DNA from: a candidate division CPR2 bacterium GW2011_GWC2_39_35
GTDB lineage: Bacteria; Patescibacteriota; CPR2
DNA: 64,000 nucleotides
Direction: 5' to 3'
Assembly: GCA_000995065.1 (NCBI GenBank)
Contig: LBWX01000004.1
Coordinates: forward strand, 14,431 to 78,430
Shown: positions 763 to 21,175 of the stretch, piece after piece
How positions within the stretch are numbered: position 1 is the stretch's first letter
How the letters are laid out: the number at the start of each line of letters is the position of its first letter
The notes under the pieces: generated by a model
Told to the model about the DNA's origin: nothing
The model's database searches: none
Seen by the model: only the letters and a program-made list of their open reading frames with translations
Made by a program: the position numbers and the translations under genes

Positions 763-1980
763 ATGCTAAACATTTCAAAAGTCATAATTCGCTATCCAAT
801 CGAATCACTGCTCGGACTTTCCTTAATTCCCCTACTAGTCATTAGCAGCGATGCCGCTACCTCAAATCTACTTTTAATACCTGCTTTTTTTTCGGTTAGA
901 TTGATTTCCGTCTTATATAAAAATAAAAGCGATATACCCCCATTAATTAGTATAGTTGTCTTATGTGCCTTAGCCTATTACTTCACGCTAAAATTACACT
1001 GGGTTTGGCCCATTTCTCTCATGCTTTTTTTTGGTATTTTTATTTATCTTAAAAAAAAATTTAGTCCAATTCTAATGAAGGAAAAAAAGGCTTTAAAAAT
1101 AATTTATCTATCTATTATCTCGTTAACAATTTTTTTGCCGGCTGTTCTCCAGCTTTACCAGAAAACTAACCAAACAAAAGAATTTAACCTACTAGAAAAG
1201 AAATTAGATGAGGAAATGTCAACACTTCAAGAAAAGCAGAAAACATCGCTTAACATGGTAAGGCAATTATCTGAAGACGAATATATAAAGTCTAACTTAA
1301 ATAACAAAAGTGCAGCTGAACTTGCCGCCGTTTTAAGATCCAAGATGCTTGCAAGCAACCTATCATACCTTGTTCTCACCGATCACATTGGGAACGTTAA
1401 GATCAGAGCCCATAAACCAGGAGTTGCGGGAGATAACATTTTCGAAAGCTTCCCGGAAACAAAATCAGTATTTGAGGGCAGAACATATGAGGGTATCGAA
1501 GAAGGCCTAGAATCCCCCTTGATTATTATCGCTGGCGCCCCAATTTATAACGAAGATAAAATAAACGGAGCAATTTTTACCGGATACTTGCTTAATGACG
1601 ATTTTGCCAGAAAAGAATCCGTGGCTCTACAAGAAAGCATTGCATTTTATTCGAACCAGAAGCTATATGGATATTCTTCCTCAAACCCAGGCATCAGCTC
1701 CGTATTTATCTCCTCTAATATCCGAGGTTATTTAGATACTAATTCTAAAGACGTTATTAAAAAAGAAGCGATACTTGAAAATAAAAATTATTTATTTGCA
1801 GCAAAGACCATAAAAAACAACCGTCAAATAACGATTGGAAAAGTCGTTATCATAAGTGAAAATTCCGAAACTAAAATTTTTGCAAAAGATGTCTCCACCT
1901 TCGTGGGAATTCTGGTTGCGACAATTATTATTTGGTTTATCAGTAAAAACAAGATCATCTTAAAAAGGAAGAGCAGTTGA
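763..1980 (+). CDS. hypothetical polytopic membrane protein with coiled-coil/extracytoplasmic region and C-terminal TM
   Basis: 405-aa ORF; several N-terminal hydrophobic helices and a terminal TM segment; 4-nt overlap with next ORF suggests an operon. Confidence 0.45.
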   Translation: MLNISKVIIRYPIESLLGLSLIPLLVISSDAATSNLLLIPAFFSVRLISVLYKNKSDIPPLISIVVLCALAYYFTLKLHWVWPISLMLFFGIFIYLKKKFSPILMKEKKALKIIYLSIISLTIFLPAVLQLYQKTNQTKEFNLLEKKLDEEMSTLQEKQKTSLNMVRQLSEDEYIKSNLNNKSAAELAAVLRSKMLASNLSYLVLTDHIGNVKIRAHKPGVAGDNIFESFPETKSVFEGRTYEGIEEGLESPLIIIAGAPIYNEDKINGAIFTGYLLNDDFARKESVALQESIAFYSNQKLYGYSSSNPGISSVFISSNIRGYLDTNSKDVIKKEAILENKNYLFAAKTIKNNRQITIGKVVIISENSETKIFAKDVSTFVGILVATIIIWFISKNKIILKRKSS

Positions 1981-3113
1981 AAAAAATCACCTTTTTACTC
2001 AAAAATTATAGGTTTTCTTTAAAAATTTCAACCCTAGAATTAGCTTTTTATATCGCTATCATCATTAGCGCATTTTTTTTCTCAAATCAATTTTTAAACA
2101 GAGCAAAATATCCCACAAGCAATACAGCTATTAAGCTCCAAATGGAAAATAAAAAACAAGCCACCTCTAATTTATCGTTAATTATGGCAAGAGGCAGTTT
2201 TAATATTAACGAAGAAATACCAGTCAAAATCCATATAACCGCCACCGATGGATCAAATATGGCTCAAATAAATCTTAATTACCTCCCTGGAAACATTTCA
2301 TTTACCAGGATGGACAGAACCAACTCCGTTTGCAGTGATTTAAGAAATATAATTAGCAACAGCGAAAGCGGAACGGTAAGTTTTGAATGTCGCCTGGGAA
2401 GCCAAGAAAAAAAGAAAACTTCCGGCTTAGTAGCAACGGCACAATTTATTGCCAAAGGGTCTGGAAATAATATCTTTACCTTTAACGACAAAGACACCTA
2501 TGTAATATCAGCACAAAACCAAAGAACGAATCTTTCTTACGAAACACCTCTGGGCAATTACATTTATATTTTTTCGGATTCTGGCAAGGAGCCGCTGCTC
2601 CCCCCAAAGACCCCCGTGTCCTCTCTAACACATCCCAATCAAGCAACTTGGTATAAAGATCCAAATATAACGTTTGAATGGCTTAGAAGTGATGATATAA
2701 AAGAATTTGAGTACTGCTACAATCAGAACAGGCTTAATTGTGAAGCTTGGAAAAAAACAACCGATAGTTCCGTGGCAATCCAGAGCCAAGATGGCAATTG
2801 GTATTTCCATGTTCAAGCCGTGAGCGATAAAGGAAAAGGACCCTTAAACACCTTTAAGATTAATATCGACCAAACTCCCCCCGAAGAGATTAAGCCAATC
2901 ATTGAGTCAAAGAATATAAAATTCAACCGCGAAGATAATGAGTCCGGAATTAAAACCGCAAATATCGTCATCGACGGTCAAAAATTTGAAAACATTGATG
3001 ACTCCTTTATAATTCCGGAGCTTAAAGCCAAAAATCATCATGTAACCATAGAAATAATCGATAACGCCGGCAATATTCAAAAGAAAACATTTACTTTAAC
3101 GGCTAATAAATAG
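1977..3113 (+). CDS. membrane-anchored protein with FN3-like beta-sandwich domain
   Basis: 378-aa ORF; N-terminal TM helix; W/Y-rich beta-strand pattern (ATWYKDPNITFEW...NWYFHVQAVSDKGKGP) typical of fibronectin-III-like domains. Confidence 0.4.
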   Translation: MKKITFLLKNYRFSLKISTLELAFYIAIIISAFFFSNQFLNRAKYPTSNTAIKLQMENKKQATSNLSLIMARGSFNINEEIPVKIHITATDGSNMAQINLNYLPGNISFTRMDRTNSVCSDLRNIISNSESGTVSFECRLGSQEKKKTSGLVATAQFIAKGSGNNIFTFNDKDTYVISAQNQRTNLSYETPLGNYIYIFSDSGKEPLLPPKTPVSSLTHPNQATWYKDPNITFEWLRSDDIKEFEYCYNQNRLNCEAWKKTTDSSVAIQSQDGNWYFHVQAVSDKGKGPLNTFKINIDQTPPEEIKPIIESKNIKFNREDNESGIKTANIVIDGQKFENIDDSFIIPELKAKNHHVTIEIIDNAGNIQKKTFTLTANK

Positions 3114-4563
3114 ACTTCTCTTTAGATTCTTCCTTCTCTTCCAATTTCCGGCTTACAAACCTATCGACTGAGTCATCTATCCTCGTATTTAGGCTTCTAA
3201 TAAGAAAAATCCACCCTTGCGGCAAGAAATATTTTTTAAATTGCAGCGCTTTTTTCTTAAATCTCTCGAGATCTTTATAATAGAAAAAACCTAAAGCCGC
3301 TAAAACCATAGCTCCAAAAAGAAATATCGATAAATAACTGCCACCCTTTTTAGATACTGAATCTTGGCTCAATTCTTTAATTGATTCCACGCCTTTAACT
3401 TTCCCATTCTCACTATTTTTATCACCAGTATTTACTATGGATGGCGTTGGCGTGACTAACGACACGGGAAAAGCAGATTGATTAGAAATTATTTTCTCGA
3501 TCGCACTAGGAGGGTTTTGTCCGCCGCCCACATTTTCACCTATATAAAATCCCTCATTTCTATAAAAGCCTGGATTTGTTGCCAAAGTTTCAAAATTAAA
3601 ATCGCCGGAATAAGAAACTCCGAAACTTTCCAAGGCCTTTATTCTAAAATGGTATTTATTCTTTCCAAAAACAAGATTTTTAATTGTAATAAGATGATTA
3701 TTCCCCATTCCCGAGACTGTTGCCGAGTTTTCGTAATTCTCGGATACTCCATATTCTACAGTAGTATCAGTCGGTCTAGATGTTTTCCACCTAATTTCAG
3801 CTGAATTTGAAAGGAGATTGATGCTTACATCCAAAATGCTTAGAGTTTCGATTTTAAAATCGCTTGACGATTGGTTTCCGGAAGAATCCCAAGCAAAGAG
3901 CTTTACATCATAAACTTTGTTAATTATTAGATCAGACAAAGAGCCTTCATGCCTAGTCTTATAATTACTATCATGTTTTTTGCTTAACGTACTTCCCGGG
4001 TAGCCATATTGAAGCTCATACCTTACCTGTTCGTCAGCTTCCCATGAAACTAAGGCATTAACTGTTGGTGCCTCAGACTTAGACGTAAATTTTAAATTTG
4101 GCAAGACGGTATCAGCACCCGTTGTAAAAGACCAAGAATAACCTTCTTCGAGTAAATAGTGCGGTTCTAATGCGTGAAGACCCATAATTCCAGAATATCC
4201 GCCATTTATCCTAACCGTATAATTGGTAAAAGGCTTTAACTGGCAGTTATTAAAGCTTGTAGCTTCCCTTGCTATCTCAAAACTGAAGCCAGAGCTATAA
4301 GTCCTAAAATATTTTATAAATACTGAGTCGCTAGGAGACGTAATGCTTACATTAGCCTTTAAAGTATTTTCATCGATAACTACGCCTGAGTTCGAAAAAG
4401 AAACACTGATCCCATTTACCAAATTAACAGGAACGCTTGTGGAATTAACCGAAGGAGAAACGCTGGTGATTTGTAGCTCACCATCAGCCAAAACACTGCT
4501 TGGTAATAGAAACAAAGCAATGAGTGAGAATAATCCTATTCTAATAAGTTGGCGTAATAGCAT
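3103..4563 (-). CDS. type-I membrane protein with two FN3-like repeats and cytoplasmic charged tail
   Basis: 486 aa; N-terminal signal peptide; two repeats of the pattern W..T/S...T.V.YG......H...I..L.....Y.FR......G.....F.T; C-terminal TM helix followed by KK/EE-rich tail. Confidence 0.5.
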   Translation of the reverse strand: MLLRQLIRIGLFSLIALFLLPSSVLADGELQITSVSPSVNSTSVPVNLVNGISVSFSNSGVVIDENTLKANVSITSPSDSVFIKYFRTYSSGFSFEIAREATSFNNCQLKPFTNYTVRINGGYSGIMGLHALEPHYLLEEGYSWSFTTGADTVLPNLKFTSKSEAPTVNALVSWEADEQVRYELQYGYPGSTLSKKHDSNYKTRHEGSLSDLIINKVYDVKLFAWDSSGNQSSSDFKIETLSILDVSINLLSNSAEIRWKTSRPTDTTVEYGVSENYENSATVSGMGNNHLITIKNLVFGKNKYHFRIKALESFGVSYSGDFNFETLATNPGFYRNEGFYIGENVGGGQNPPSAIEKIISNQSAFPVSLVTPTPSIVNTGDKNSENGKVKGVESIKELSQDSVSKKGGSYLSIFLFGAMVLAALGFFYYKDLERFKKKALQFKKYFLPQGWIFLIRSLNTRIDDSVDRFVSRKLEEKEESKEKSIY

Positions 4564-6499
4564 AAATTAATGTCCCCACGTATTGGTCGCTTGGTTGATT
4601 TTGATTTACTTCTATAGCATACGTGACATATGCATCGGAGCCAAGATCTTTAGAATCCTTATACATAACCGGATGTGCTGTCGTGCTAACCGGCCCAAAT
4701 TTTGCCGAGGCACTGGACCAGCCTGCAACCCTGGTATCATTTGTATTAGCGCCTAACCAACCAGAATCTGAGTTTGTGGACCCGGTTGGACTACTCCAAG
4801 TAGTCGGCGTATCCCAGCTCCCCGTAAAAGGGTCTATCTTATTAGCCGGATATTGTCCCTGCATATAAGCCTGCATTTTTATATTAACCGTATAGCCATT
4901 GGCGGCCGTAGTTTCTACATGAAGCTTTTGGGCGGCATACTCGGGTGATCCGATTTCTAGCTTTCCAAAGGGAACTAAATTATAATCAGTACTTGCCGTA
5001 GTTGTAACGCCATTGGTACTGGTTCCCGATGTTACCCCTTCGACCTTAAAAGTGAGTGATGCCGTATCTTGAATATCATATGACACCGTACCCATATCCA
5101 CCAAGGTCGAGCCTGCATCGCTATAAGTTTTGATGGTAATATTGCAAGTATCATACATAAACCCGGCAATAGTGCAGTCCTCTATTTCAGGATTAATAAC
5201 CCCATTAAGAGGAATGGTAATACTATCACCCAAATTTTTACTTTCACCACCGCCCGAAATTTTTACTAAACCGCTACCAGCACTACTTGTGCTATAAGTC
5301 CAACTACCGTTTGTTAGGCCCGTCATAGTGCCTAACGTCGAGGAGCTAAGGTTTAGATTTGTCGGCTTAGTAGCATCCCCTGCCGCTTTCTCAAACTGAA
5401 AGTCTATTTGCTTAATCGTCGCCGTTGTTCCTAAGGTAAATTGAATAGTATGAGTCGAGGCAGTTCTCGGAGTTATAACAGAAAGCGTATCAGACATACT
5501 GGTTAAGGGATTATAAGGCGTTAAAGTAGCTTTATAGATGTCTTTGTGAGTGTTTCTGGCATCTTGCCAAACCGCGGTTCCGTTATAAATAGCCGGAATC
5601 TTTTGGTCTTGGGAACCGGTAACCACGATAGTCTCTAGTGACTTAGAAATCTGATAAGCATATACATCGGAATTTCCGGAACGAACATCCTCATAAACTA
5701 TGATATCACTGTAAATTCTTGGATACCTAGGATCAGCGCTTCCAGAGGTAATCTGACTGTTTGAACTTTGAGTTAGGTCATATTTGTGAACACTATAATT
5801 ACCGGTAGCAGGTGCTTTTTGGTAAACAAGCTGATCACTGTAAATATGAGGGTAATTTTCATTTGCAGAGTTATTTGTTATTTGAGTTTCACTGCTTCCG
5901 GCTAAGTTATTCGTGAAAACATCATCATTTCCGTTCCTATTATCATAATAAGCAATTTTTTGATCATAAATGACCGGATTTTTTTGGTTTGAAGAGTCAG
6001 TTGATATCTGAGTTTCTTGGCTGGCCTGTAAATCATACATATAGATATCATCGTTTCCATTTCGATTATCCACATACACAATTTTTTGTCCATAAATAGC
6101 CGGATATGTTTGGTCTGACAGATTAGTAGTCACCTGAGTTTCGCTGCTGCCGGACAAATCATAAACGTAAATATGAGAATATGTACCGCCCCGATCACAT
6201 GAATATACGATCTTGTCCCCATCTATGTCGGGATTATATTCATTGGCGCTAGTATTGGTAATTCTCGTCTCAGAACTAGTACCAGTATTATACATGTAAA
6301 TTTCAGTATTTCCATTCCTAGTATCCTCATACACTATTTTCCCAGCAGAAATTCTTGGTTTTGTTTGATCTGAGGAATCTGTAGTTATTCTAGACTCCAC
6401 CACTAATAGGTTTGCCAACGAATAACCGAAATTACCAAATAAAAATACAAAAATAGCTAAATAGACGGTTATTTTTTTGGCAAACACACTTTTAACCAT
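4541..6499 (-). CDS. secreted TolB-like (PD40/WD40-like) beta-propeller repeat protein with conserved C-terminal domain
   Basis: 652 aa; signal peptide; seven to eight ~38-aa repeats 'NGN(D)D(I/V)YMYDL..S.ETQ(I/V)T...S.Q..P.IY..KIVY.D.RNGN'; last ~150 aa are homologous to the C-terminus of ORF 9135..10286. Confidence 0.55.
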   Translation of the reverse strand: MVKSVFAKKITVYLAIFVFLFGNFGYSLANLLVVESRITTDSSDQTKPRISAGKIVYEDTRNGNTEIYMYNTGTSSETRITNTSANEYNPDIDGDKIVYSCDRGGTYSHIYVYDLSGSSETQVTTNLSDQTYPAIYGQKIVYVDNRNGNDDIYMYDLQASQETQISTDSSNQKNPVIYDQKIAYYDNRNGNDDVFTNNLAGSSETQITNNSANENYPHIYSDQLVYQKAPATGNYSVHKYDLTQSSNSQITSGSADPRYPRIYSDIIVYEDVRSGNSDVYAYQISKSLETIVVTGSQDQKIPAIYNGTAVWQDARNTHKDIYKATLTPYNPLTSMSDTLSVITPRTASTHTIQFTLGTTATIKQIDFQFEKAAGDATKPTNLNLSSSTLGTMTGLTNGSWTYSTSSAGSGLVKISGGGESKNLGDSITIPLNGVINPEIEDCTIAGFMYDTCNITIKTYSDAGSTLVDMGTVSYDIQDTASLTFKVEGVTSGTSTNGVTTTASTDYNLVPFGKLEIGSPEYAAQKLHVETTAANGYTVNIKMQAYMQGQYPANKIDPFTGSWDTPTTWSSPTGSTNSDSGWLGANTNDTRVAGWSSASAKFGPVSTTAHPVMYKDSKDLGSDAYVTYAIEVNQNQPSDQYVGTLIYAITPTY

Positions 6500-6592
6500 T
6501 ACTTCTATCTTAACCTAAATAAGTTAATTTACCAATCAGAAATACGAGGATTACTAAGTGTTGAGATGGATTTGAAGTATAATATGAATTAC

Positions 6593-6714
6593 GAATGTCA
6601 AATGTCAAAATCCAAATGCCAAATCAAATCCTAAATCCAAATGTTAAAAAATATCATTTAGTCATTAAGTCATTTGTCATTCATTTGACATTTGAAATTT
6701 GAGCTTTGACATTG
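6593..6714. repeat. long AT-rich inverted repeat of the 'CAAATGTCAAATGA' family, copy 1
   Basis: Left arm gaatgtcaaatgtcaaaatccaaatgccaaat... pairs with right arm ...agtcatttgtcattcatttgacatttgaaatttgagctttgacatt. Confidence 0.6.
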
Positions 6715-6727
6715 CATATACACGCTT

Positions 6728-7516
6728 CTAGTAGTTCCTATCAACCTCTCCATAAACCAGGGAGGAAATGTTTTTAATAGTACCCTCAACATTAGCCAGA
6801 TTTGGATTATTGCTTTTGGTCATCACGCACAGAAGATAAGGATTGTCCGGATGATACACTATCCCGCAATCGTGCAATTCACGCTTGGAAAGAATAGCCA
6901 TATCCCCGCCAACAGGCTGAACCTCAGTAAAAAGACCAAACTTATGTGCAACATCTACTCCTTGAGGAACCCCGGCTACCAACCCTTCCTTAAAATCTAC
7001 CTGGCTTAATAGATTAAGTGCTTTCTCGGAGAGTTCCCTTCTCAAATAAGTCGCGTTATAAAGCACTCTAAAGAAATACGAAAAATCACCGGCCGTCATA
7101 TAATCTTGGGTTGATCTATCGGTTGGAGGAGAGAGCTGTAAATCTTTAAATGCCGTATCTAAAACCTGGCGATCTATATTATGCATCAGAGTATTGGTAG
7201 AAATATTATCGGAATATTTTATCATTTTCTCTATCAATTCTTCTACCGTATATGTGTTACCGCTTTTTGCAAAATCTTTCGGCTTTATTTCTAGCTCTCC
7301 GTTGGTATCCGGTTCGGTTATTGTAATTTTCTTAGATAAAATTCCCGGATCAGACCTCGCCGCATTTAAGTAACCAATCATTATCGGAATTTTGTGCAAA
7401 CTGGCCGGAAAAAATTTCTCTTCCGGATTGATGTTTACTTGATTGCCCGACTTGATATCCCTAAAAAAAACAGAAGCCGTATTTACATTGCCAGACTCCA
7501 CCTCTTTATCTACCAA
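6728..7516 (-). CDS. class-A beta-lactamase / PBP-like serine hydrolase, paralog 1 (no signal peptide in this ORF)
   Basis: 262 aa; SxxK motif (PASLHK), SDN motif (YSDNIST), KxG motif (HKFG); about 55% identical to ORF 7917..8699; ORF as called starts at a TTG. Confidence 0.5.
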   Translation of the reverse strand: MVDKEVESGNVNTASVFFRDIKSGNQVNINPEEKFFPASLHKIPIMIGYLNAARSDPGILSKKITITEPDTNGELEIKPKDFAKSGNTYTVEELIEKMIKYSDNISTNTLMHNIDRQVLDTAFKDLQLSPPTDRSTQDYMTAGDFSYFFRVLYNATYLRRELSEKALNLLSQVDFKEGLVAGVPQGVDVAHKFGLFTEVQPVGGDMAILSKRELHDCGIVYHPDNPYLLCVMTKSNNPNLANVEGTIKNISSLVYGEVDRNY

Positions 7517-7533
7517 TTGTTTAATTTTATTTT

Positions 7534-7716
7534 CTAAAAGAGTGGGCTAATAAACTTATAACCATTTAAACGAAGGGCTTTTAGATTTGAAGAATTAGTA
7601 TCGTCTAACAAAATTCCCTTTATTACCCAACCACCAATAAACCCAACAATAAGAACTGCGAAAAATATTGGGAACGGAAATTTGATGGTTTGTCTTGTGC
7701 TTTTTGATGATTTCAT
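7534..7716 (-). CDS. small single-TM peptide immediately upstream of beta-lactamase-like paralog 1
   Basis: 60 aa: MKSSKSTRQTIKFPFPIFFAVLIVGFIGGWVIKG...; ends ...YKFISPLF* 17 nt before the downstream TTG; same arrangement recurs at paralog 2. Confidence 0.35.
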   Translation of the reverse strand: MKSSKSTRQTIKFPFPIFFAVLIVGFIGGWVIKGILLDDTNSSNLKALRLNGYKFISPLF

Positions 7717-7916
7717 AACGACTAATAAATTATATCATATTTAGTGGTGTAGTTCTCTCCAAAAATGTCAGGTTTTGATACCCGTCACTTTAAATTATTG
7801 CTCGACCTTGTGGAGAGCTACATTAATATACTTCTCCATTTCAGTCGAAGAATAAAAATCTGACATTTTGTTTTAACATTGCTATAGGTACAAACGACTG
7901 AAAGCAGTAAAAAGCC

Positions 7917-8699
7917 TTACGGTGAAACATTGGCCGCTCTTTCTACTTCCTTATAAACTTCCGAAGAAATGCTTTTAATAGTGCTCTCGATTATTGGGGT
8001 ATCAGATATACTTTTTGTCATTACACAAAGAAAATAAGGCTCTCTCGGATGATAAACAATGCCGCAATCATGCAACTCGTTGTACACGGAATTTGAGCGA
8101 TCAATATTGCCGCCAAGGCCGTATTTATGCGCCACCGGAACATCTTTAGGAACTCCGGCCACCAGACCTTCTTTATAATCAACTTCGCTTAAAATATTAA
8201 GAGCTCTTTCGGATAAGTCCCTTTTTAAATATGTAGCATTGTATAATACCCTAAAGAAATAGGAAAAATCGCTTGCTGAAATATAATCCGCAACTTCACT
8301 CGTAGGATAAGGAATCTTTAGGTCTTTAAATGTTTGATCTAATAGATTTTGATCTATGTTATAGGTAAGCGCATACGCAGCGTTATTATCGGAATGCTTA
8401 ATCATTTTTTCAATTAGCTCTTGGACAGAATATGTTCTGCCATTTTTGGCATAATCTTTTGGCTTAATGCCCTGAACCGAGTTAGTGTCTTCCTCAAAAG
8501 ACACCATTATCTTTTTGTCTAAAATTTTAGGGTCCGTTCTAGCTAGTTTAAAATAAGCAATCATTACCGGAATTTTATGCAAACTGGCCGGATAGAACTT
8601 CTCTTTAGGATTAATGTTTATTTGATTGCCCGACTTGATATCCCTAAAAAAAACAGAAGCCGTATTTACATTGCCAGACTCCACCTCTTTATCTACCAA
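7917..8699 (-). CDS. class-A beta-lactamase / PBP-like serine hydrolase, paralog 2
   Basis: 260 aa; SxxK (PASLHK), SDN (HSDNNAA), HKYG; the first 25 aa are identical to paralog 1. Confidence 0.5.
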   Translation of the reverse strand: MVDKEVESGNVNTASVFFRDIKSGNQININPKEKFYPASLHKIPVMIAYFKLARTDPKILDKKIMVSFEEDTNSVQGIKPKDYAKNGRTYSVQELIEKMIKHSDNNAAYALTYNIDQNLLDQTFKDLKIPYPTSEVADYISASDFSYFFRVLYNATYLKRDLSERALNILSEVDYKEGLVAGVPKDVPVAHKYGLGGNIDRSNSVYNELHDCGIVYHPREPYFLCVMTKSISDTPIIESTIKSISSEVYKEVERAANVSP

Positions 8700-8716
8700 T
8701 TGTTTAATTTTATTTT

Positions 8717-8890
8717 CTAAGGGCTAATAAACTTATACCCCCCAAGCCGAAGAGCTTTTAGGTTGGAAGAATTAGTATCAAAAATTGTCCCCTTAACCAA
8801 CAATCCGATTGCAAATCCGGCAATAAGGGTAAGAAAAAGTATTAAATATGGGAAATTAGATTTAAATGATTTACTCTTTGCTGATTTCAT
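8717..8890 (-). CDS. small single-TM peptide upstream of paralog 2 (57 aa, below the ORF-track cutoff)
   Basis: My manual translation of the minus strand: MKSAKSKSFKSNFPYLILFLTLIAGFAIGLLVKGTIFDTNSSNLKALRLGGYKFISP*; homologous to ORF 7534..7716, including the C-terminal ...NSSNLKALRL.GYKFISP. Confidence 0.35.
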   Translation of the reverse strand: MKSAKSKSFKSNFPYLILFLTLIAGFAIGLLVKGTIFDTNSSNLKALRLGGYKFISP

Positions 8891-8958
8891 AGCTGTTTTA
8901 TTTATTATAACATGACCTGCCAGATAAATTTAATATTATGATACGACTTTCACACTTT

Positions 8959-9046
8959 AGTCATTGCGAGCGACTGGAAGGAGCGCGGCAATCTCATCTT
9001 AAAACCGTATGAGATTGCTTCGTCACAAAGCCTCCTCGCAATGACA
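8959..9046. repeat. palindromic element of the 'GAGATTGCTTCGTC...CTCGCAATGAC' family
   Basis: gtcattgcgagcgactggaaggagcgcggcaatctcatc | gatgagattgcttcgtcacaaagcctcctcgcaatgac; related copies at 31799..31866 and 52003..52072. Confidence 0.45.
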
Positions 9047-9089
9047 GAGCGGATGAGTTTAAATGCGTAAGTCGTGTAAGGGTTAATTC

Positions 9090-9118
9090 AAAAAAGCCCC
9101 CTTTCGAGGGCTTTTTTG
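9090..9118. terminator. bidirectional rho-independent terminator
   Basis: aaaaaagccccctttcgagggcttttttga: GC stem flanked by A-run and T-run, directly after the stop of ORF 9135..10286. Confidence 0.6.
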
Positions 9119-9134
9119 AATATAGTACTTATTT

Positions 9135-10286
9135 TTAGTACTTTGGAGTTGCGTTGTATACCATGTAGCCAGTATATTGGTCAGCTGGCTGATATTGGTT
9201 TACTTCTAGAACAAAAGTAATTCTAACGTCAGTTCCACCATTATCTGGAACCGCTGAAGTCATAACAAGATCTGCAGTACCGTCAACCGGAGCCCACTTG
9301 TTATCAGCGCCTGCGCCCCAGTTTGGAAGAGTGGAGTCATTTGAGTGAGCGCCAATCCATCCGGAGTCTACGTTCTTGGCAGAACCAGTTGGAGTAGTCC
9401 AAACTTCTGGAGCAGTCCAGTCATCAGCCGCCGTATCAAACGGATCAATGAGGTTGCCTGCATACTGGCCGCTCATATCGTCACGCATGGTCATAGTAAC
9501 GTCGTAACCATTGTTGGCGTTAGTAATAACCTCTAAATCCTGTGCCATATAAACAGGGTCGGCAACGGCTAAGTAACCGAATGGCAAAGTGTTAAAGGTT
9601 GAAGTCTGCTCAATAGCATGAGTGTTACCGGTCTGAGCTACGTTAGAAACACCCGTTACGGTAAATCTCATGGATGGATCAACCTTTGCGGTTAAGGTAG
9701 TTTGCTCAGTAATAGTGAAGGTAATGGTTGTCTCGTCAATGTCATTAGCACTAGTCATATCAGCAACAGTGTCGGTGTTATAAGTGGTAATTCTTACATA
9801 ACAAGTACCGGCTGAGCTGTTGGTTGGATTAGGAGAACACCCAGTATTATCAGCATTTATTGGCGGATTGGTGATGTTTTGAATAGTATAAATTGGGTTG
9901 TTGGTTGCCACCAAGGCATCACCCGTAGCACTGGTAATAATCACGTTTCCCGTAGCAGCCTGCGTAAGATTGATGGCCCAGTCGCCGGCATCTAATGGGG
10001 CAGCCGGAGCAGCAAGGGTAGCAGCAGCTAGGTTAATACTGGTCGGTTTAATGGTAAGGGCAGCGTCTTTTCTAAATTCCATTTTAATACCCTTAACTGT
10101 ACCGTTGTTAGAAATTTTATAATTGAACTGATAGTTGGAAGCCGTTGCTCCCCTTGGGTCGGATAGCGTAACCTTTGCGTCGTACAAAAGGTTCCAACCG
10201 TCAGCAGCCATAGCCGGCATAGCCGTGCCAAGCGCCAAAAGCGTGGAAACTGCGTAGGTTGCGATCTTTTTGAAGCTTTTTAACAT
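9135..10286 (-). CDS. secreted protein sharing a C-terminal ~150-aa domain with ORF 4541..6499
   Basis: 383 aa; clear Sec signal (MLKSFKKIATYAVSTLLALGTAMPAMAADG); C-terminal block ...NGYDVTMTMRDDMSGQYAGNLIDPF...WTTPTGS..VDSGWIGAHSNDS...VLEVNQYQPADQYTGYMVYNATPKY aligns with the 4541..6499 C-terminus (...IEVNQNQPSDQYVGTLIYAITPTY). Confidence 0.5.
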   Translation of the reverse strand: MLKSFKKIATYAVSTLLALGTAMPAMAADGWNLLYDAKVTLSDPRGATASNYQFNYKISNNGTVKGIKMEFRKDAALTIKPTSINLAAATLAAPAAPLDAGDWAINLTQAATGNVIITSATGDALVATNNPIYTIQNITNPPINADNTGCSPNPTNSSAGTCYVRITTYNTDTVADMTSANDIDETTITFTITEQTTLTAKVDPSMRFTVTGVSNVAQTGNTHAIEQTSTFNTLPFGYLAVADPVYMAQDLEVITNANNGYDVTMTMRDDMSGQYAGNLIDPFDTAADDWTAPEVWTTPTGSAKNVDSGWIGAHSNDSTLPNWGAGADNKWAPVDGTADLVMTSAVPDNGGTDVRITFVLEVNQYQPADQYTGYMVYNATPKY

Positions 10287-10530: not shown

Positions 10531-10559
10531 ATGATAATGAACCAAAAAAACCGTGTCAA
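10531..10559 (-). promoter_or_regulatory. sigma70-like promoter candidate for ORF 9135..10286
   Basis: Minus-strand reading TTGACA-cggtttttttggttcat-TATCAT (17-nt spacer), about 240 nt upstream of the start codon. Confidence 0.35.
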
Positions 10560-10644: not shown

Positions 10645-10989
10645 TCACTTCTTTATTGGCTTCGGTTCATTAAAACCTATCAAGACCATCGCCTTAAACT
10701 GATTTATCTTTGCAACTCCCCCATCAATTGTAAACTCTCGAGGCTTTTCCTGGCCAACATCTATTATTAAAGTACCCTTTTCGAGCTTGGTAAATAATGG
10801 CGTATGTCCTGGAAGTACCGCAAAATTGCCGTTTGTTCCCGGAGCAATGATCGACTTTGCTTTCCCCTCATACAAAACATTATCCATGTTTACAACTACA
10901 ACATCGATCTCTTCGGGAATCTTAGTTTTATCTAGAGATGGTTTTTGAGGCTTAGTAGTATCTTTAGTTGTTTCTTCCTTCTTATCCAA
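10645..10989 (-). CDS. atpC: F1 ATP synthase epsilon subunit
   Basis: ...IAPGTNGNFAVLPGHTPLFTKLEKGTLIID... matches the epsilon beta-sandwich; about 20-aa Lys/Thr-rich N-terminal extension; last gene of the atp operon. Confidence 0.8.
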   Translation of the reverse strand: MDKKEETTKDTTKPQKPSLDKTKIPEEIDVVVVNMDNVLYEGKAKSIIAPGTNGNFAVLPGHTPLFTKLEKGTLIIDVGQEKPREFTIDGGVAKINQFKAMVLIGFNEPKPIKK

Positions 10990-11040
10990 TTCAATCCTTA
11001 ATTAATGTATCTATTAATATATTTAGGATTATTTAAATAC

Positions 11041-11151
11041 CAAATGACAAAATCCAAATGTCAAATGAATGTCAAATGACTTAATTTCAAATGCTTTAAA
11101 CATTTAGTCATTAGGATTTTATTTGTAATTTGACATTTGAGCTTTGACATT
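11041..11151. repeat. same inverted-repeat family, copy 2 (atpD-atpC intergenic)
   Basis: caaatgacaaaatccaaatgtcaaatgaatgtcaaatgac ... gtcattaggattttatttgtaatttgacatttgagctttgacatt. Confidence 0.6.
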
Positions 11152-11202
11152 AACGCGCCTTACATATTAGTTATCTTATAATTCATTATCTTTGAGCTTT
11201 TA

Positions 11203-12630
<1,428 letters not shown>

Positions 12631-12664
12631 TTATATTCCCCTTATATAGCTTTATTCTAAATTA

Positions 12665-12793
12665 AAATCCAAATGTCAAAGCTCAAATGCCAAATGAATG
12701 TCAAATGACTAATGACCAATTGCCCAATTATTAATTTTTTGACATTTAGTCATTAGGATTTCATTTGTAATTTGACATTTAGATTTTGACATT
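12665..12793. repeat. same inverted-repeat family, copy 3 (atpG-atpD intergenic)
   Basis: aaatccaaatgtcaaagctcaaatgccaaatgaatgtcaaatgac ... gtcattaggatttcatttgtaatttgacatttagattttgacatt. Confidence 0.6.
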
Positions 12794-12863
12794 ATCGATT
12801 TCCTTATCCTTACATTTTTGACTTGCAATTTTGCCTTTTGAATTTTGAATTATGAATTTGTCT

Positions 12864-13757
12864 TTACCAAAGAGCGCTTCCTGCAAAAACTTCGCTGATT
12901 TTTTTATCAATCATTTTTCGTCTTTGCTTATTATACTCATGATCGAGGTCCTCTAACATGGTTTTAGCATTCTCGGAAGCTGTCTGCATTCCCACCATCT
13001 GGGCTGAAAACTGAGACAATCTTGAGTCTAAAATTTGCTGCTGAAAAGCTGCGGCCCTCAGCTTTGAGGAGACATCCATAATGAGCTCTTCTATTGACGG
13101 CTCAAACAAAAACTTCACTTTTTCTTCTTCCGGAACATTTGCCTCTTCTCCCTCTTTGCTTTCGGTTGGCGGCGTTACAAGAAGAGTCTCTACCACATCT
13201 CTCGTTATGGTATTTATATATCTAGAGTAAACCATAAGGATCTTATCGTAATGCGAAAATACGCCGGCAAGCCGCAAAAGATCGGCCGCTGAAAAATTAT
13301 CGGGTATATTATATGGGTAAAATTTAAAATTATACTTCTTATTCATTAGATAATGCTCTTGGCCCTTTTTACCTACCATAAAAATATCAGCATTTTGATT
13401 TTCTCTTAAAATATGTGTCTCCAGAGCTTTAAAAATTTCACTGTTATAAGATCCGCACAAGCCCTGATTCGAAGTAATGATAATTAAAGCTTCTTTACTT
13501 TCCTTCTTCTCTTCCTTGTGTCTTTTCTTAAAAGCTCTTTTTTCCGCTCTTTCTAACTCTTCCTTGTAAAGAATCTCTCGGTAAAGTTTTAGCTCTCTTA
13601 AAATTTGAGTCGCCTCATCGACAAACCTTTTACTTTGAAGCACCTGATTTCTTAAAGACATCATTCGCATAGCGCCAATTTGCTGTAAAGCAGTTGTAAA
13701 ATCACCTACTGATCTTACAACTCCAATTTGTTCTTTAACTTCATTAATTGCTGACAT
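12864..13757 (-). CDS. atpG: F1 ATP synthase gamma subunit
   Basis: 297 aa; typical gamma N- and C-terminal helices (MSAINEVKEQIGVVRSVGDFTTALQ...; ...ISEVFAGSALW); position between atpA and atpD. Confidence 0.85.
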   Translation of the reverse strand: MSAINEVKEQIGVVRSVGDFTTALQQIGAMRMMSLRNQVLQSKRFVDEATQILRELKLYREILYKEELERAEKRAFKKRHKEEKKESKEALIIITSNQGLCGSYNSEIFKALETHILRENQNADIFMVGKKGQEHYLMNKKYNFKFYPYNIPDNFSAADLLRLAGVFSHYDKILMVYSRYINTITRDVVETLLVTPPTESKEGEEANVPEEEKVKFLFEPSIEELIMDVSSKLRAAAFQQQILDSRLSQFSAQMVGMQTASENAKTMLEDLDHEYNKQRRKMIDKKISEVFAGSALW

Positions 13758-13760
13758 AAT

Positions 13761-15512
13761 TTAACCTTGTTTCGGCGCCTCTACGGTACCAGCTTGAACT
13801 GGTTTTAGCTCTTCTTGAGGCTTGACTGCAACCTCTTTTGGCGCATTTTCCTTTTCATAAATATATTTAAAATACTTAGCGGTATCCGAATCTGTCTTGC
13901 TTAAATAACTACCGATCACAGCGTCGGCAAACGGCTTAATTTCTTCTACCGACTTTATCATGCTTAAGGAAGCACCTCTAAATTTATCGTGATTTTCGCT
14001 ATCCTTTCGATAAAACTCAATCATTTCTACCTTAAGTTTAGCCACAACCTCAACATCTATTTTGTCCACTATTCCCGTTACCACCAGATATAGCAGGAGA
14101 ACCTCTTCATCCGAACTTAAATTCACTCCCGAAAGCTGGGTAAATATTTCTAAGATTCTTTTGCCACGCCCAATCTCTCTTTCTGTTTCCTCCGATATTT
14201 CGGTATTCATAATTTCATAGGATTTAACTTCGTTATATCTGGCCAATTGACTAGCCGCAAGCTCTGCTAATTTCCTAAGCATTGGGGGCTGAATGCTGCC
14301 GCCGATACGAGACACAGACGCACCGGAATTTACCGCCGGTAAGGTGCCGCCGTGCATCATCTGAGTGTCCAAATAGATATGGCCGTCGGTAATTGACATA
14401 AGGTTGGTACAAATATATTCCGAGATATCGCCATTTTGCGTTTCTGACATCGGCAGAGCCGTTACCGAACCTCCGCTGTATTTAGAATGCAGTTTAGCAC
14501 TCCGCTCTAAAAGCCTGGAATGTAAAAAGAAAATATCGCCCGGATAAGCATCCCGACCCGGCGAACGTTTTAAAAGAAGCGACATTTGACGATATGCCTT
14601 AGCGTGTTTTGATAAATCATCGTAAATAACCAAAGCATTTTTACCGGAGTCCATGTAGTATTCAGAAAGCGCCGCTCCGGCATAAGGCGCCAGATAGTTT
14701 AAAGATGGCGGATCATCGGAACTCCCCATCACGATAGTGGTATACTCTAAGGCCCCATACTTATTTAAATATTGGACAAAAGATTTTACCTTAGCCTTCT
14801 GGGAGCCGATAGCTACATAAATACAGTGAATATCTTTGCCTTTAAGATTACAGATGATATCAGCCATAAGCCGCGTTTTTCCGGTTTTTCTGTCTCCCAC
14901 CACCAACTCTCTTTGCCCTTTTCCAACGGGGATGATGGAATCAATCACCAAAAATCCGGTTTCCAACTGATCAACAATAGGAGACCTCATATATACCCCG
15001 GGTGCCGGACGCTCTACAACCATCTGTTTTCCGCTCTTAATGGGTCCTAGGCCGTCCAAAGGCTTTCCAATGGGCGAGATTACTCTTCCTAAAACTCCAT
15101 CGCCTCCGGAAATCTTTAAGGTCTTTCTGGTAGAGATCACGAGATTGCCCTTTTTTACACCGTAATAATCACCTAAAACCACTGATTCAACCAAATTCTC
15201 CGTAATTCCTAACACCAAAACCAAAACATCGCCCGCTCCTGTTTCCACTTTTAAAACGTCGTCAATCCTAGCATTGGAAAGCCCCTCTATCTTACAAACA
15301 CCATCGCCAATATAGACGACTTCCCCAACTTCAACAATTTCCGGAGCCATTTCTTTATCCGGTAAAGAATCTTCTAGAAAATTAGTCAAGGTTGAATCCG
15401 CGCCCCTTTCTCCTCCTGTGTCCTTCCTTCTTCCTTCTTCCTTCTTCGGCTCTTTTTTCTCCGGCACCGACATATCTATATCATCTAAAAAATCTCCGAT
15501 TCCCTTATTCAT
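13761..15512 (-). CDS. atpA: F1 ATP synthase alpha subunit with ~60-aa N-terminal and ~40-aa C-terminal extensions
   Basis: 583 aa; Walker A GDRKTGKT; conserved alpha core; charged low-complexity extensions at both ends. Confidence 0.9.
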   Translation of the reverse strand: MNKGIGDFLDDIDMSVPEKKEPKKEEGRRKDTGGERGADSTLTNFLEDSLPDKEMAPEIVEVGEVVYIGDGVCKIEGLSNARIDDVLKVETGAGDVLVLVLGITENLVESVVLGDYYGVKKGNLVISTRKTLKISGGDGVLGRVISPIGKPLDGLGPIKSGKQMVVERPAPGVYMRSPIVDQLETGFLVIDSIIPVGKGQRELVVGDRKTGKTRLMADIICNLKGKDIHCIYVAIGSQKAKVKSFVQYLNKYGALEYTTIVMGSSDDPPSLNYLAPYAGAALSEYYMDSGKNALVIYDDLSKHAKAYRQMSLLLKRSPGRDAYPGDIFFLHSRLLERSAKLHSKYSGGSVTALPMSETQNGDISEYICTNLMSITDGHIYLDTQMMHGGTLPAVNSGASVSRIGGSIQPPMLRKLAELAASQLARYNEVKSYEIMNTEISEETEREIGRGKRILEIFTQLSGVNLSSDEEVLLLYLVVTGIVDKIDVEVVAKLKVEMIEFYRKDSENHDKFRGASLSMIKSVEEIKPFADAVIGSYLSKTDSDTAKYFKYIYEKENAPKEVAVKPQEELKPVQAGTVEAPKQG

Positions 15513-16059
15513 CGACGTTTCCCGATTTTACGACTGATTTTTTCCACTCTGATCCAAATTGACCGAGCTTATTCTTAAGAGAGAAATCGAGGACAAAATT
15601 ATCTTTTTTTATAATTGCGCCTCCTATTATAGTTTTATCAACCGTCACATCCAGCACAACTTTTTTCTCCATTTTTTTGGAAAGATCTTCGGTTAATTTT
15701 TTGAGATCTTTTTCTTTTATTTCTAGTGCTGCAACCAGGTTAATTAAAACAACGTCTTCGGATAAATCCTTAAAAGATTTTTCAAAATCCCCAAAATGAC
15801 CCGGTTCAAAGATCCACATATCATTTGCGCGAATCAAGCTCTGAAAATATTCTTTTAACGGCTTTGAGGAGATATTTTTTAGCTCAGAAGCGATTAAGAG
15901 CTTACGCTTCTCTAAATTATCGCCGCCATTTTTTATTACAGATTTATAATCAACCAGCTCTTTAAACGAGTGCAGCGAAAAGACAATTTCATTTAAGTCG
16001 TCTTTACTGTGGATAATTTCCATAACATCATTTACGTGTTTATCAACTGTCTTTTGCAA
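15505..16059 (-). CDS. atpH: ATP synthase delta (OSCP) subunit
   Basis: 184 aa; operon position between atpF and atpA; delta-like C-terminal pattern; 8-nt overlap with atpA. Confidence 0.65.
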   Translation of the reverse strand: MQKTVDKHVNDVMEIIHSKDDLNEIVFSLHSFKELVDYKSVIKNGGDNLEKRKLLIASELKNISSKPLKEYFQSLIRANDMWIFEPGHFGDFEKSFKDLSEDVVLINLVAALEIKEKDLKKLTEDLSKKMEKKVVLDVTVDKTIIGGAIIKKDNFVLDFSLKNKLGQFGSEWKKSVVKSGNVDE

Positions 16060-16570
16060 CCCTTACCTCCCCTTCCATATCTTTTAGCGCTTGTTCAATA
16101 AGTTTTAAATGATCTTCATAGGTAAGAGCGCTCCCCAACATTTTCTTAGTAACCCCCATTACCAAATCAACCATCTTAGTTTGAACTTCCTTTTTCTGTT
16201 CGCTCAAATACTCCTTGGCTTCTTCCTCAGCATTTTCCTCGATAATCCGAGCTCGATTCCTAGCTTCTGTAAGAATCGCTTCTTTTTCATCATCTGAAAC
16301 TGCCGAAACCTCTACTATTTGTGGTTCCTTAGATTTATTCTCTAGAATCTCTTTATGCCTTTTTTCTACCTCGACCACTATTGCTTTAAGCTTTTCTATC
16401 TCTAGTTTTTCTTTAGCTTTTCTTTCAGCAATCTGGCTCAGATATCTTTCTCGAGCTTCATCTAGTTTTTTTTGAGAAACGGACTGAAGCTCTTTTTCTC
16501 TATAAGTAAAATACAAACCTAAAGTAAATAGGCATACCGAGGTTATAAATATATTAATTAACCATTCCAC
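16043..16570 (-). CDS. atpF: ATP synthase Fo subunit b
   Basis: 175 aa; single N-terminal TM helix followed by a long Lys/Glu-rich coiled coil; position upstream of atpH. Confidence 0.7.
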   Translation of the reverse strand: MEWLINIFITSVCLFTLGLYFTYREKELQSVSQKKLDEARERYLSQIAERKAKEKLEIEKLKAIVVEVEKRHKEILENKSKEPQIVEVSAVSDDEKEAILTEARNRARIIEENAEEEAKEYLSEQKKEVQTKMVDLVMGVTKKMLGSALTYEDHLKLIEQALKDMEGEVRVAKDS

Positions 16571-16774: not shown

Positions 16775-18772
<1,998 letters not shown>

Positions 18773-18937: not shown

Positions 18938-20164
18938 TTAGCTTTGCCAATAGAACATCATGATACTAAAATCAACCAAATTAACGTTTTTGTCCTTGTT
19001 TATATCGGCATTAACGTCACCGCTACCCCAATAAAAAAGAAGAATAGAAAAGTCGATTAAATTAACCGCATTATCGCAGTTTAAATCGCCCCTGGTAATA
19101 TCACAGCCCGGGCCAGGTTCGGGCGGAGTTTCGGGCTTGATTACAAAGGTTATACTCACACTGAATAAACTTGTCGACCCAAACGGATCCTGGTTCAAGG
19201 CATTAACCGTATATATTCCAAACTCAAAATCGCTGGTATCAGCAATTGTATACGACCAATTACCATCCACATCCGGAATTGCCGTATAAGTTGTTCCGGG
19301 ATCGACATAGATATTTATTTGATAGTCAGGCACTCCCATACCAGAAATGATTAGTGGCGCACCCCTTATAACTTCCGAATTATCCAAAGAGATTGATGGC
19401 GGCAAAATAAGCCCTGAAACAGTGGTGATTTCATAAGCCCTCGTAAAGACTTCGATGGTGGTTGGAGGTATAGAACGCTCCAAGGGATCCGCACCCACAA
19501 TCTCTATTGTATGCTGAACCGGGTTTAATCCCGGAAAAACTTGAGAAAAAGCTCCTCCATTACCTGCCGTACAAGTACCGATAATTCCTCCATCCTCCAA
19601 AAAAGTTATAAACATCCCCGGAGAGGTAACGCCCATTATTCTCAAGGTTCCTACCTGTGCTTCGATCATAGCAGATACTACTACCGAACCGTCCGTCGTA
19701 GTAGCATAAATATGGGCTTCTTCTCTTAAATCAAAACCGTCCACATCCTTAGATATCCTAATGTACACATCAAATTGGTCGGGGCTGACCGGATTAAAAG
19801 CCGTCAAGCCATAAAACGTAAAATAAGCACCGGGATTAGCCGTAATCCCGGTTATTCTAACCTGTTTATCAATCACGCTATACTGCGGCACCCCACCAAA
19901 ACCAGAAGCATAAGTAGGTTCAGTTATTTGAGTAAAATAAGGCAATTCGATAAAAATCCAATCGGAAGCAATAAGAGGCTCGGATGCCATAGATATGCCA
20001 AACTTGATCTGATGGCTAGCCCAAGCCCCAACATCGCCGTTATTTATAACGTCCCTTGGATTATATAATGGATTAATCGCTGCACTCGCTTTTTCCGGAG
20101 AAAAGGAAATAAAAGTAACAGCAAACAATATCGGGATTAATACTTTTAAAGATTTTTTAATCAT
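18938..20164 (-). CDS. secreted protein with C-terminal type-I dockerin domain
   Basis: 408 aa; signal peptide; C-terminus has two Ca-binding dockerin repeats: DLNCDNAVNLIDFSILLFYW and DINKDKNVNLVDFSIMMFYW (D-x-N-x-D-x-x-V-N-x-x-D pattern). Confidence 0.55.
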   Translation of the reverse strand: MIKKSLKVLIPILFAVTFISFSPEKASAAINPLYNPRDVINNGDVGAWASHQIKFGISMASEPLIASDWIFIELPYFTQITEPTYASGFGGVPQYSVIDKQVRITGITANPGAYFTFYGLTAFNPVSPDQFDVYIRISKDVDGFDLREEAHIYATTTDGSVVVSAMIEAQVGTLRIMGVTSPGMFITFLEDGGIIGTCTAGNGGAFSQVFPGLNPVQHTIEIVGADPLERSIPPTTIEVFTRAYEITTVSGLILPPSISLDNSEVIRGAPLIISGMGVPDYQINIYVDPGTTYTAIPDVDGNWSYTIADTSDFEFGIYTVNALNQDPFGSTSLFSVSITFVIKPETPPEPGPGCDITRGDLNCDNAVNLIDFSILLFYWGSGDVNADINKDKNVNLVDFSIMMFYWQS

Positions 20165-20230: not shown

Positions 20231-21175
20231 TTACTTAGTTAAATTATGTAAGATTTTCTTTACCTTATCTCTTTTAACCACTACCAACCCAAGAACTACG
20301 ATTCCGACAGCAGTTGCGGCAGCCAATGGCTTTGGGAAAACAATGAACGACACAGAAGCTGATAACGGCTTATTCTGTTGTCCGTAAGTTGCAACTAGAG
20401 TTGCGGTATATCTGTTTGCAAGCAATCCATCATGCTTCCATTCAGTATCCATCTTTCTAATAGTATTATTTGGGAGTACGTTTAAACCGTTTAGAGGAAC
20501 TTCAGCAACTTTTCTTCCGAAAATGTCTGTTATAACAATTGTTCCTTTTGGTCTTACATGATTATTACCGGCGTTTTTAACTCTGAGGCCAAAATTAACT
20601 GGAGCTTTTTCTGAATATTTTGGAGCTGTAAATGATTCGACTGTTGTTTCTTCCTTAACGTTTCCCGAAACCCTTAACAGTACAAGTGAACCAATTCTCG
20701 ACGCAACGCTAGCACCACTTGTATTGAGGTTGCCATCGCCGCCCATACTGACCAAGATAGAAGCATAATGGCCACCTGGCTCAGCATCTTTCGGAACATT
20801 CACACGAAAATTTAAAGCTTTTTCCTCACCAGGACCGAGCGTAAGAGTTTTTACATCTGGCTCAATCCACTTAGCAAGAGAAAAAGTAGAATTTGATTGT
20901 TCCTTGTCAACCAATTCGACTCCCCCATCCTCACCTTGTGCCTTAAAATCCTCCACAACAATCTGAAATGTACTTTGAACAGAAGATTCATTTTTAACTC
21001 TTAGCTTCTCCGTTATTCCTTCGCCAGGATTAGCATACAATTCAAAATTCGGCGGAACCACGGTTATTCCCCGACTCTCAGGCCCTCCATCGGCAGCTTT
21101 AAGTAATTTTGGAGCACTAACCAAAGCAACTGATAAAATTACTCCAAGCATTACTGAAATAGTCTTTTTCATCAT
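20231..21175 (-). CDS. cell-surface protein with signal peptide and C-terminal TM anchor plus basic tail (DUF916-like architecture)
   Basis: 314 aa; MMKKTISVMLGVILSVALVSAP... signal; ends ...PLAAATAVGIVVLGLVVVKRDKVKKILHNLTK. Confidence 0.4.
   Translation of the reverse strand: MMKKTISVMLGVILSVALVSAPKLLKAADGGPESRGITVVPPNFELYANPGEGITEKLRVKNESSVQSTFQIVVEDFKAQGEDGGVELVDKEQSNSTFSLAKWIEPDVKTLTLGPGEEKALNFRVNVPKDAEPGGHYASILVSMGGDGNLNTSGASVASRIGSLVLLRVSGNVKEETTVESFTAPKYSEKAPVNFGLRVKNAGNNHVRPKGTIVITDIFGRKVAEVPLNGLNVLPNNTIRKMDTEWKHDGLLANRYTATLVATYGQQNKPLSASVSFIVFPKPLAAATAVGIVVLGLVVVKRDKVKKILHNLTK

Follow-up and report, generated by a model that had tools for sequence, protein, structure and literature searches.

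In Lactobacillales, Listeria and Enterococcus, gene clusters known as Csc or WxL clusters encode a small WxL protein (CscB), a large WxL protein (CscC), a WxLIP protein (CscA) built from DUF916, DUF3324 and a transmembrane (TM) helix, and optionally an LPxTG protein, CscD; the small WxL protein is hardly more than the WxL domain itself (PMC1534035, PMC9772566, PMC10599100, PMC5817068). The large protein carries N-terminal binding domains, among them ConA-like lectins, its WxL domain invariably lies at the C-terminus, and the clusters show a characteristic charge pattern of acidic WxL and basic CscA proteins (PMC1534035). Binding of WxL proteins to the cognate DUF916 protein has been seen in vitro for E. 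faecium (cited in PMC5817068). The domain is marked by a pair of Trp-x-Leu motifs, of which the distal lies in YXXX(L/I/V)TWXLXXXP and the proximal follows a DxRG (PMC5817068, PMC1534035); no WxL structure is found in the PDB, neither in the table of PMC5817068 nor in our PDB structure searches. Here we describe two secreted proteins, A and B, which share a C-terminal module and are encoded in a stretch of 64,000 nucleotides (the window) of contig LBWX01000004.1 from the candidate division CPR2 bacterium GW2011_GWC2_39_35. They are members of a large, unannotated family of secreted proteins that is specific to Patescibacteria, which also go by the name of Candidate Phyla Radiation (CPR), and the genes of this family are coupled to genes for DUF916 proteins in an organization that recalls the WxL clusters. 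The literature searched contained no paper that ties DUF916 or WxL to CPR bacteria.

A two-domain module shared by two secreted proteins

A first-pass annotation had singled out two open reading frames (ORFs) as genes for secreted proteins with a common C-terminal block, ending ...TPTY in A and ...TPKY in B. Both are indeed present on the minus strand (Table 1), and both encode signal-peptide-like N-termini; that of B ends ...AMPAMA/AD, and in A this region is the single hydrophobic segment of the protein. The isoelectric points (pI) are 4.6 for A and 4.25 for B. Over their final ~153 residues the proteins are 46% identical (tblastn, E about 1e-37), a similarity far above chance. The block itself had been left unassigned to any family, and rightly so, as neither the module of a single protein nor a profile of its C-terminal part has a match in Pfam, NCBIfam or the PDB sequences. 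Two other statements of that annotation need revision: the lack of any relation between A and B apart from the block, and a length of ~150 residues for the shared domain. In BLASTP, residues 329-652 of A match residues 31-383 of B (34% identity, E=3e-43). Thus, the whole of mature B aligns with the C-terminal half of A, comprising what had been termed a beta-rich middle region together with the terminal block, and B is not unrelated to A. A tblastn search of the window found these two copies of the module and no third.

The module consists of two beta-sandwich domains, an N-terminal domain (NTD) of ~165 residues and a C-terminal domain (CTD) of ~180 residues, the latter corresponding to profile positions ~198-375. 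In an AlphaFold2 model of B based on an alignment of 150 sequences (mean predicted local distance difference test score, pLDDT, 89.8), the signal peptide is followed by two nine-stranded beta-sandwiches, the NTD at residues ~31-195 with a pLDDT of ~90 and the CTD at residues ~200-383, whose blocks mostly score >95; this model supersedes an earlier one built from 9 sequences, in which the CTD had a pLDDT of ~55. The cysteines C150 and C162 of the NTD are invariant in one alignment of family members. In the CTD, Y371 does not vary across 150 members, at least 90% of which also keep each of P204, F236, N256, G260, Y261, P299, G312, Q366 and Y383, the last residue of the protein. The resulting family signature reads ...LTVxTNAxNGYxV...NIDPF...W..P..W..PTG...GWxGA.T.D...EVNxxQPADxYtGtlxYnxxPtY-COOH. 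An origin of the two domains by internal duplication found no support, the hhalign probability for NTD against CTD being 0.4%.

Structure searches with the module returned generic Ig-like beta-sandwiches only. Cohesins were among the best matches, yet the identity to cohesins, YcnI/DUF1775 and BslA/YweA is only 7-13%, and neither A nor B has a match to the Pfam Cohesin family. A search of 72,556 plasmids with a divergent CTD (tblastn) was also without a match.

The N-terminal partner of the module in A is a propeller, which matches TIGR04275 in 7 stretches (E=8.5e-81) as well as PD40 (E=2e-8). Its first description as a TolB-like PD40 propeller of 7-8 blades therefore holds for the repeats, which number 7, and for the fold; A scores 80.4 bits with the TolB equivalog model TIGR02800, well under the cutoff of 343 bits, so that its propeller is TolB-like in fold only. 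By this model A does not qualify as the TolB of the Tol-Pal system, and its repeats are those of TIGR04275, 'beta_prop_Msarc'.

A large family with a strictly C-terminal domain

How widespread is this module? A word-indexed search yielded only 9 relatives. An exhaustive profile search over 1.84 billion representative proteins returned 1,965 clusters with a threshold of E<=1e-3, of which 1,234 remain at E<=1e-10. Most of the best 150 profile matches are proteins of ~350-400 residues, 'small' forms like B, and in ~25 of the 150 the match is confined to the CTD (positions ~198-375), in proteins of 500-1,100 residues. The alignment reaches the last residue in 140 of the best 150, and that residue is Tyr or Phe in 151 of 156 proteins, counting profile-search matches together with the first nine homologues; in genome loci, 61 of 66 strong CTD matches finish within 2 residues of the C-terminus. 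Together, the CTD-only matches and these terminal positions identify the CTD as a separable, strictly C-terminal unit. The first-pass annotation had raised the possibility of a generic domain with no preference for C-termini; the fold is indeed generic and Ig-like, yet it shows an extreme preference for the C-terminal position.

The N-terminal partners are varied and are domains of a binding type. Among 53 diverse members, Laminin_G_3/ConA-like domains occur in 10 and DUF2341 in 7, and a clostridial toxin receptor-binding domain and a sialidase lectin domain were also found. Genes for a 'small' and a 'large' module protein commonly come as pairs, as with B and A in the window and in loci L004-L006, L009-L011, L014 and L015, and one locus, L039, holds four paralogues. 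Public sources name the members 'hypothetical protein', and both CTD and NTD deserve entries in Pfam and InterPro.

All members that could be placed belong to Patescibacteria, namely to Saccharibacteria, Berkelbacteria, Levyibacteriota, Paceibacterota, Falkowbacteria and WWE3. An origin of 14 further loci in Gammaproteobacteria or Pseudomonadales was considered and rejected: the genes around the module there share synteny and 50-84% identity with labelled CPR loci, and we therefore treat these labels as errors. The records concerned are third party annotation entries of metagenome-assembled genomes (MAGs) named 'uncultured Gammaproteobacteria/Pseudomonadales bacterium', found among L009-L015, L020-L026, L028-L030 and L041-L043. 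In these MAGs the housekeeping genes next to the module resemble their counterparts in MAGs that carry the label Patescibacteria, Levyibacteriota or Saccharibacteria.

Coupling to a DUF916 protein

The first pointer to a partner came from P0009 (L001:10001-11929, 642 residues), in which a WxLIP-like protein and its TM helix are fused in frame to another signal peptide and a complete module, and whose Ig-like part has a weak match to DUF916/WxLIP_PGBD. It is either a natural fusion, with a topology that would fit an outward orientation of both parts, or the product of a stop codon lost between adjacent genes.

The window encodes such a WxLIP-like protein as well (Table 1). It matches PF06030 (WxLIP_PGBD) with E=4.6e-7 and 30.3 bits, above the Pfam cutoff of 27.3 bits, has a TM-like segment at residues 275-293 and a pI of 9.45. 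PF06030 is matched by 24 of 32 CPR relatives, a profile of the CPR proteins aligns with a genuine L. plantarum WxLIP at 95.5% probability (hhalign, E=1.6e-8), and a C-terminal TM segment is present in 38 of 43 CPR proteins of this type. The partner is a DUF916 homolog.

Of 42 loci surveyed locally with hidden Markov models (HMMs), 20 have a module gene and a WxLIP-like gene no more than 1 kb apart, often by 0-30 bp, and 27 have a WxLIP-like gene somewhere in the locus DNA examined. The reciprocal survey, restricted to loci from metagenomes that measure 6 kb or more and were found with a narrow WxLIP alignment, placed a CTD gene within 7 kb of the WxLIP-like gene in 23 of 41 loci, in 16 of these within 300 bp. 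Tight clusters of the order module-WxLIP-module occur in L021, L022, L024, L026 and L039. In L002 and L004-L008, as in the window, the ATP synthase operon stands between the two genes; for this subfamily, in which they stand far apart, the coupling rests on conserved synteny and not on adjacency. In two loci, a protein of ~258 residues with an N-terminal TM segment and no recognized domain is encoded between the module and WxLIP-like genes (L017:11225-11998, L018:11058-11837), and L019 has a similar gap of ~800 bp without a listed ORF.

Comparison with the WxL/Csc system

The resemblance of these loci to WxL clusters extends over several levels. The CPR 'small' protein is scarcely more than the shared module, and the 'large' proteins carry a variable N-terminal head, a ConA-like lectin in both systems, with the module at the extreme C-terminus. 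The adjoining gene encodes a signal peptide, DUF916, a second Ig-like domain and a C-terminal TM helix, and for the DUF916 part homology to the Firmicutes proteins is demonstrated. The order module-WxLIP-module in L021 and L022 equals the order small WxL-WxLIP-large WxL in L. plantarum (L047), and the charge pattern recurs, with acidic module proteins (median pI 4.3-4.5) and basic WxLIP-like proteins (8.7). The CTD (~180 residues, all-beta, nine strands, C-terminal on Sec-type proteins) is also comparable in size to the WxL domain, a non-covalent binder of peptidoglycan with 120-190 residues, and its terminal strand follows a similar pattern, AG.Y..T.x[aromatic]... P, with Y-6/aromatic/P spacing.

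On these grounds we consider it probable that the CTD is the retention or anchoring module of a CPR-specific surface-display system that is the counterpart of WxL/Csc in its logic. The proteins would leave the cell by Sec export, and their CTD would dock non-covalently onto a membrane-anchored protein of the DUF916/WxLIP type, such as that encoded in the window, and possibly onto the cell wall as well. 'Small' proteins such as B and 'large' ones such as A, or elsewhere those with ConA-like lectin heads, would be displayed together on the surface, where the propeller and lectin heads may bind ligands. The first-pass annotation had proposed a terminal surface-anchoring module on different exported proteins; the terminal position (61 of 66 and 140 of 150), the variety of heads and the coupling to DUF916/WxLIP bear out the architecture and point towards anchoring.

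A number of observations weigh against this proposal or set the CPR loci apart from the WxL clusters. Some of them concern the client domain. A suspicion, raised by the terminal motif, that the CTD is itself a WxL domain had to be rejected. Trp-x-Leu motifs are absent from it, with both W and L replaced, as is DxRG, and the protein ends 2 residues past the conserved Pro, with Tyr or Phe last. PF13731 (WxL, IPR027994) is absent from A, B and P0002-P0009 at E<=1-10, and for the 53 diverse members it is not among the families listed at E<=1 (25 of 34). With 29 genuine small WxL proteins and a handful of WxL2 domains as controls, all of them PF13731 and found by using an alignment read by optical character recognition from a supplement as a hook, the CTD profile gave an hhalign probability of 0.14% (E=0.41) against 25 small WxL proteins and of 0.15% against 5 WxL2 domains, which as 5 sequences make a weak test for WxL2. 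A divergent CTD subfamily reached E=0.096 against the small WxL proteins, over the final 21 columns only. Overall, these probabilities range from 0.14 to 0.6%, and the alignment is confined to the final one or two strands ('YQVGV...AGNYTTTV' matched to 'LQVGKQ..SAGTYTATLYW'). The CTD is not demonstrably a WxL domain, the shallow WxL profiles leaving room for a very remote homology, and in view of these results the analogy to WxL is one at the level of the system only.

The partner and the architecture of the loci differ as well. WxLIP_HBD (PF11797, DUF3324) was detected in none of the 32 CPR WxLIP-like relatives; they have a second beta-rich domain of matching size, which the DUF3324 model does not match. 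In 15 of the 42 module loci there is no WxLIP gene in the locus DNA examined. In the window, the WxLIP-like gene lies ~10 kb and nine genes from B, past the ATP synthase operon, so that a strict distance rule does not hold there, and no CTD gene occurs within 7 kb of its closest relatives (L050-L066). As a rule the CPR module has the extra NTD, making the 'small' proteins ~370 residues long as against ~240, and the hosts are Patescibacteria, not Firmicutes. An LPxTG partner is lacking in CPR loci: a regular-expression scan of all ORFs in 47 loci gave one doubtful LPEAG (L043) and none near the genes of the window. How the WxL system itself works is known mostly from prediction (PMC9772566, PMC10599100), and we infer the surface location, the contact between CTD and WxLIP-like protein and any binding to the cell wall. 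Taken together, the comparison is best read by analogy, such that the CPR clusters would work like WxL clusters with a client domain that is different or has diverged beyond recognition.

CPR bacteria make up a large share of bacterial diversity, those in cultivation live on host cells, and their means of host recognition and attachment are poorly known beyond type IV pili (PMC12206443, PMC10633639, PMC11665869). A secreted family of ~2,000 clusters with swappable heads offers candidate surface adhesins, and the DUF916/WxLIP homolog a specific, testable partner; both adhesins and anchoring mechanism could be tested in cultivable Saccharibacteria, and three Saccharimonadales loci, L039, L040 and L046, carry members of the family. 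We tentatively extend the proposal to a display system undescribed so far and spread through the entire phylum, in which the CTD might plug into a DUF916-type receptor and the heads might serve these obligate episymbionts as adhesins for host recognition, a possibility to which we give somewhat less than even weight. If true, the DUF916 'WxLIP' anchor would be an ancient docking platform of monoderm bacteria with different clients in Firmicutes and CPR. Already the finding of DUF916 homologs extends the range of the WxLIP/DUF916 anchor far beyond Firmicutes and uncouples it from the WxL domain, which bears on the mechanism of WxL proteins.

Alternative functions of the module

Could the module serve assembly instead of display? 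It is conceivable, if unlikely, that an abundant B-type protein self-assembles into the surface layer (S-layer), which on CPR cells is paracrystalline, or a similar lattice, which the CTD fixes to the wall or membrane and into which the 'large' proteins co-insert through their module. S-layer attachment had also been suggested in the first-pass annotation, and anchoring by the CTD is common to this model and the WxL-like one. The small form is the commonest architecture, accounting for most of the best 150 matches, it is acidic, rich in Ala, Thr and Asn and nearly free of Cys, and A and B each have a strong promoter-like site upstream (Table 1). However, there is no similarity to a known S-layer protein or to SLH or CWB2 anchors, a 35-kDa protein of two Ig-like domains is small for an S-layer subunit, and the presence of several paralogues per locus, such as the four in L039, suits a display system better.

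Equally built on assembly, and quite unlikely in our judgment, is a pilus or fibre formed by donor-strand exchange, with the WxLIP-like protein as a PapD-like chaperone or platform and the aromatic C-terminal strand as the recognition element, as in chaperone-usher pilins. In the monomer model, which is complete and has a CTD pLDDT of >95, neither a missing strand nor a free donor extension at the N-terminus is obvious. Further, the module resembles neither TLP-1 nor any pilin in sequence, its structural scores with these are no better than with cohesins or YcnI, and neither a conserved usher or sortase gene nor an LPxTG signal is found nearby.

In Bacteroidota, the CTD of the type IX secretion system (T9SS) is a folded beta-sandwich placed at the very C-terminus of secreted proteins that have no other relationship. 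The CPR domain shares the fold class and the invariably terminal position, and its last residue is conserved, as might be expected of a secretion or sorting domain that, like the T9SS CTD or the sortase and exosortase signals, is read and perhaps removed by an export machine. Nevertheless, we regard this as very unlikely. The members all have ordinary N-terminal Sec-type signal peptides, and no transporter or protease gene is conserved with the module, the conserved neighbour being WxLIP-like. At 180 residues with many conserved surface aromatics, the CTD is large for a signal; the T9SS domain is about half its size, belongs to diderm hosts and relies on an outer-membrane translocon and the PorU sortase, and there is neither a sequence match between the two nor any T9SS machinery near the CPR genes. 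Moreover, CPR bacteria are generally taken to be monoderm (PMC11665869), leaving no second membrane to cross.

A generic Ig-like or PKD-like spacer, with the resemblance of A and B due to a recent duplication, would agree with the generic beta-sandwiches of the fold searches but is effectively excluded by the extreme positional bias, the conserved terminal residue, the ~2,000 clusters and the strong coupling to one partner family, and A and B, at only 34% identity and each with orthologues in other genomes, are not a recent duplication.

Neighbouring genes in the window

Table 1. Positions of the module genes, their parts and their neighbours in the window.
Feature	Position	Strand	Description
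ORF A	4541..6499	-	652 aa, 'large' form of the module protein, with signal peptide and 7-blade propeller ahead of NTD and CTD
Propeller head of A	5525..6388	-	about aa 38-325; 7 beta_prop_Msarc/PD40-type repeats
NTD of A	5060..5515	-	aa 329-480; aligns with aa 31-197 of B; NTD HMM E=6.5e-51
CTD of A	4544..5059	-	aa 481-652 of 652; CTD HMM E=3e-75; ends ...IYAITPTY-COOH
ORF B	9135..10286	-	383 aa, 'small' module protein: signal peptide, NTD and CTD only
NTD of B	9696..10196	-	aa 31-197; conserved Cys pair C150, C162
CTD of B	9138..9695	-	aa 198-383 of 383; CTD HMM E=1.7e-84; ends ...VYNATPKY-COOH
Promoter-like site	6579..6608	-	~80 nt upstream of A; TTGACA-18-TATTAT, 11/12; consensus match only
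Promoter-like site	10531..10559	-	~245 nt upstream of B; TTGACA-17-TATCAT, 11/12; consensus match only
WxLIP-like protein	20231..21175	-	314 aa; the signal peptide is followed by DUF916/WxLIP_PGBD and a second beta domain, then by a C-terminal TM helix with a basic tail
dCache_3 membrane protein	763..1980	+	sensor domain, no obvious output domain
Ig-like ORF	1977..3113	+	weak Ig-like matches only
Big_5 and fn3 surface protein	3103..4563	-	TM-like segment at aa 407-425, C-terminal; directly downstream of A
Beta-lactamase2 paralogue	6728..7716	-	PF13354; between A and B
Beta-lactamase2 paralogue	7917..8890	-	PF13354; between A and B
atpF-H-A-G-D-C	10645..16570		ATP synthase operon
Big_1/c-subunit ORF	16775..18769	-	664 aa: signal/TM segment, Big_1 Ig-like region, C-terminal ATP synthase c-subunit
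Dockerin-ended secreted protein	18938..20164	-	Dockerin_1 (type I) E=9.2e-6; adjoins the WxLIP-like gene; same pair in L002

The surroundings of A and B are partly conserved. The region 1977..4563 had been read as encoding three FN3-like membrane proteins; it holds two ORFs, and fn3 and Big_5 domains are found in the second only, at whose equivalent place L002 has a gene for a protein of 474 residues. The dCache_3 gene is a conserved neighbour of module genes, with its L002 copy at 14578-15741. The dockerin-ended protein next to the WxLIP-like gene, and a weak cohesin match in a neighbour of P0009 (L001:13801-14274), make an assembly of the cohesin-dockerin type on the CPR surface conceivable as judged from these domain matches.

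The ORF of 664 residues occupies the expected place of atpE, directly upstream of the other ATP synthase genes. Its c-subunit match (PF00137, E=3.2e-6) covers residues 599-648; the last 30 residues contain neither Asp nor Glu, the usual ion-binding carboxylate of the second TM helix is not evident, and no a-subunit gene was seen beside the ORF. The fusion of Big_1 and c-subunit is kept in L002, L009 and L011, with 36% identity over ~650 residues.

The pair of Beta-lactamase2 genes is absent from the equivalent place in the syntenic locus L002. Upstream of each lies an ORF of 57-60 residues that encodes a TM anchor and ends in TAG just before the main ORF, which is in the -1 frame. The junctions read AGC CCT TAG and CTC TTT TAG, and more than 95 nt past the junction are identical in both copies; the arrangement could reflect either a programmed -1 frameshift or a broken gene that was duplicated.

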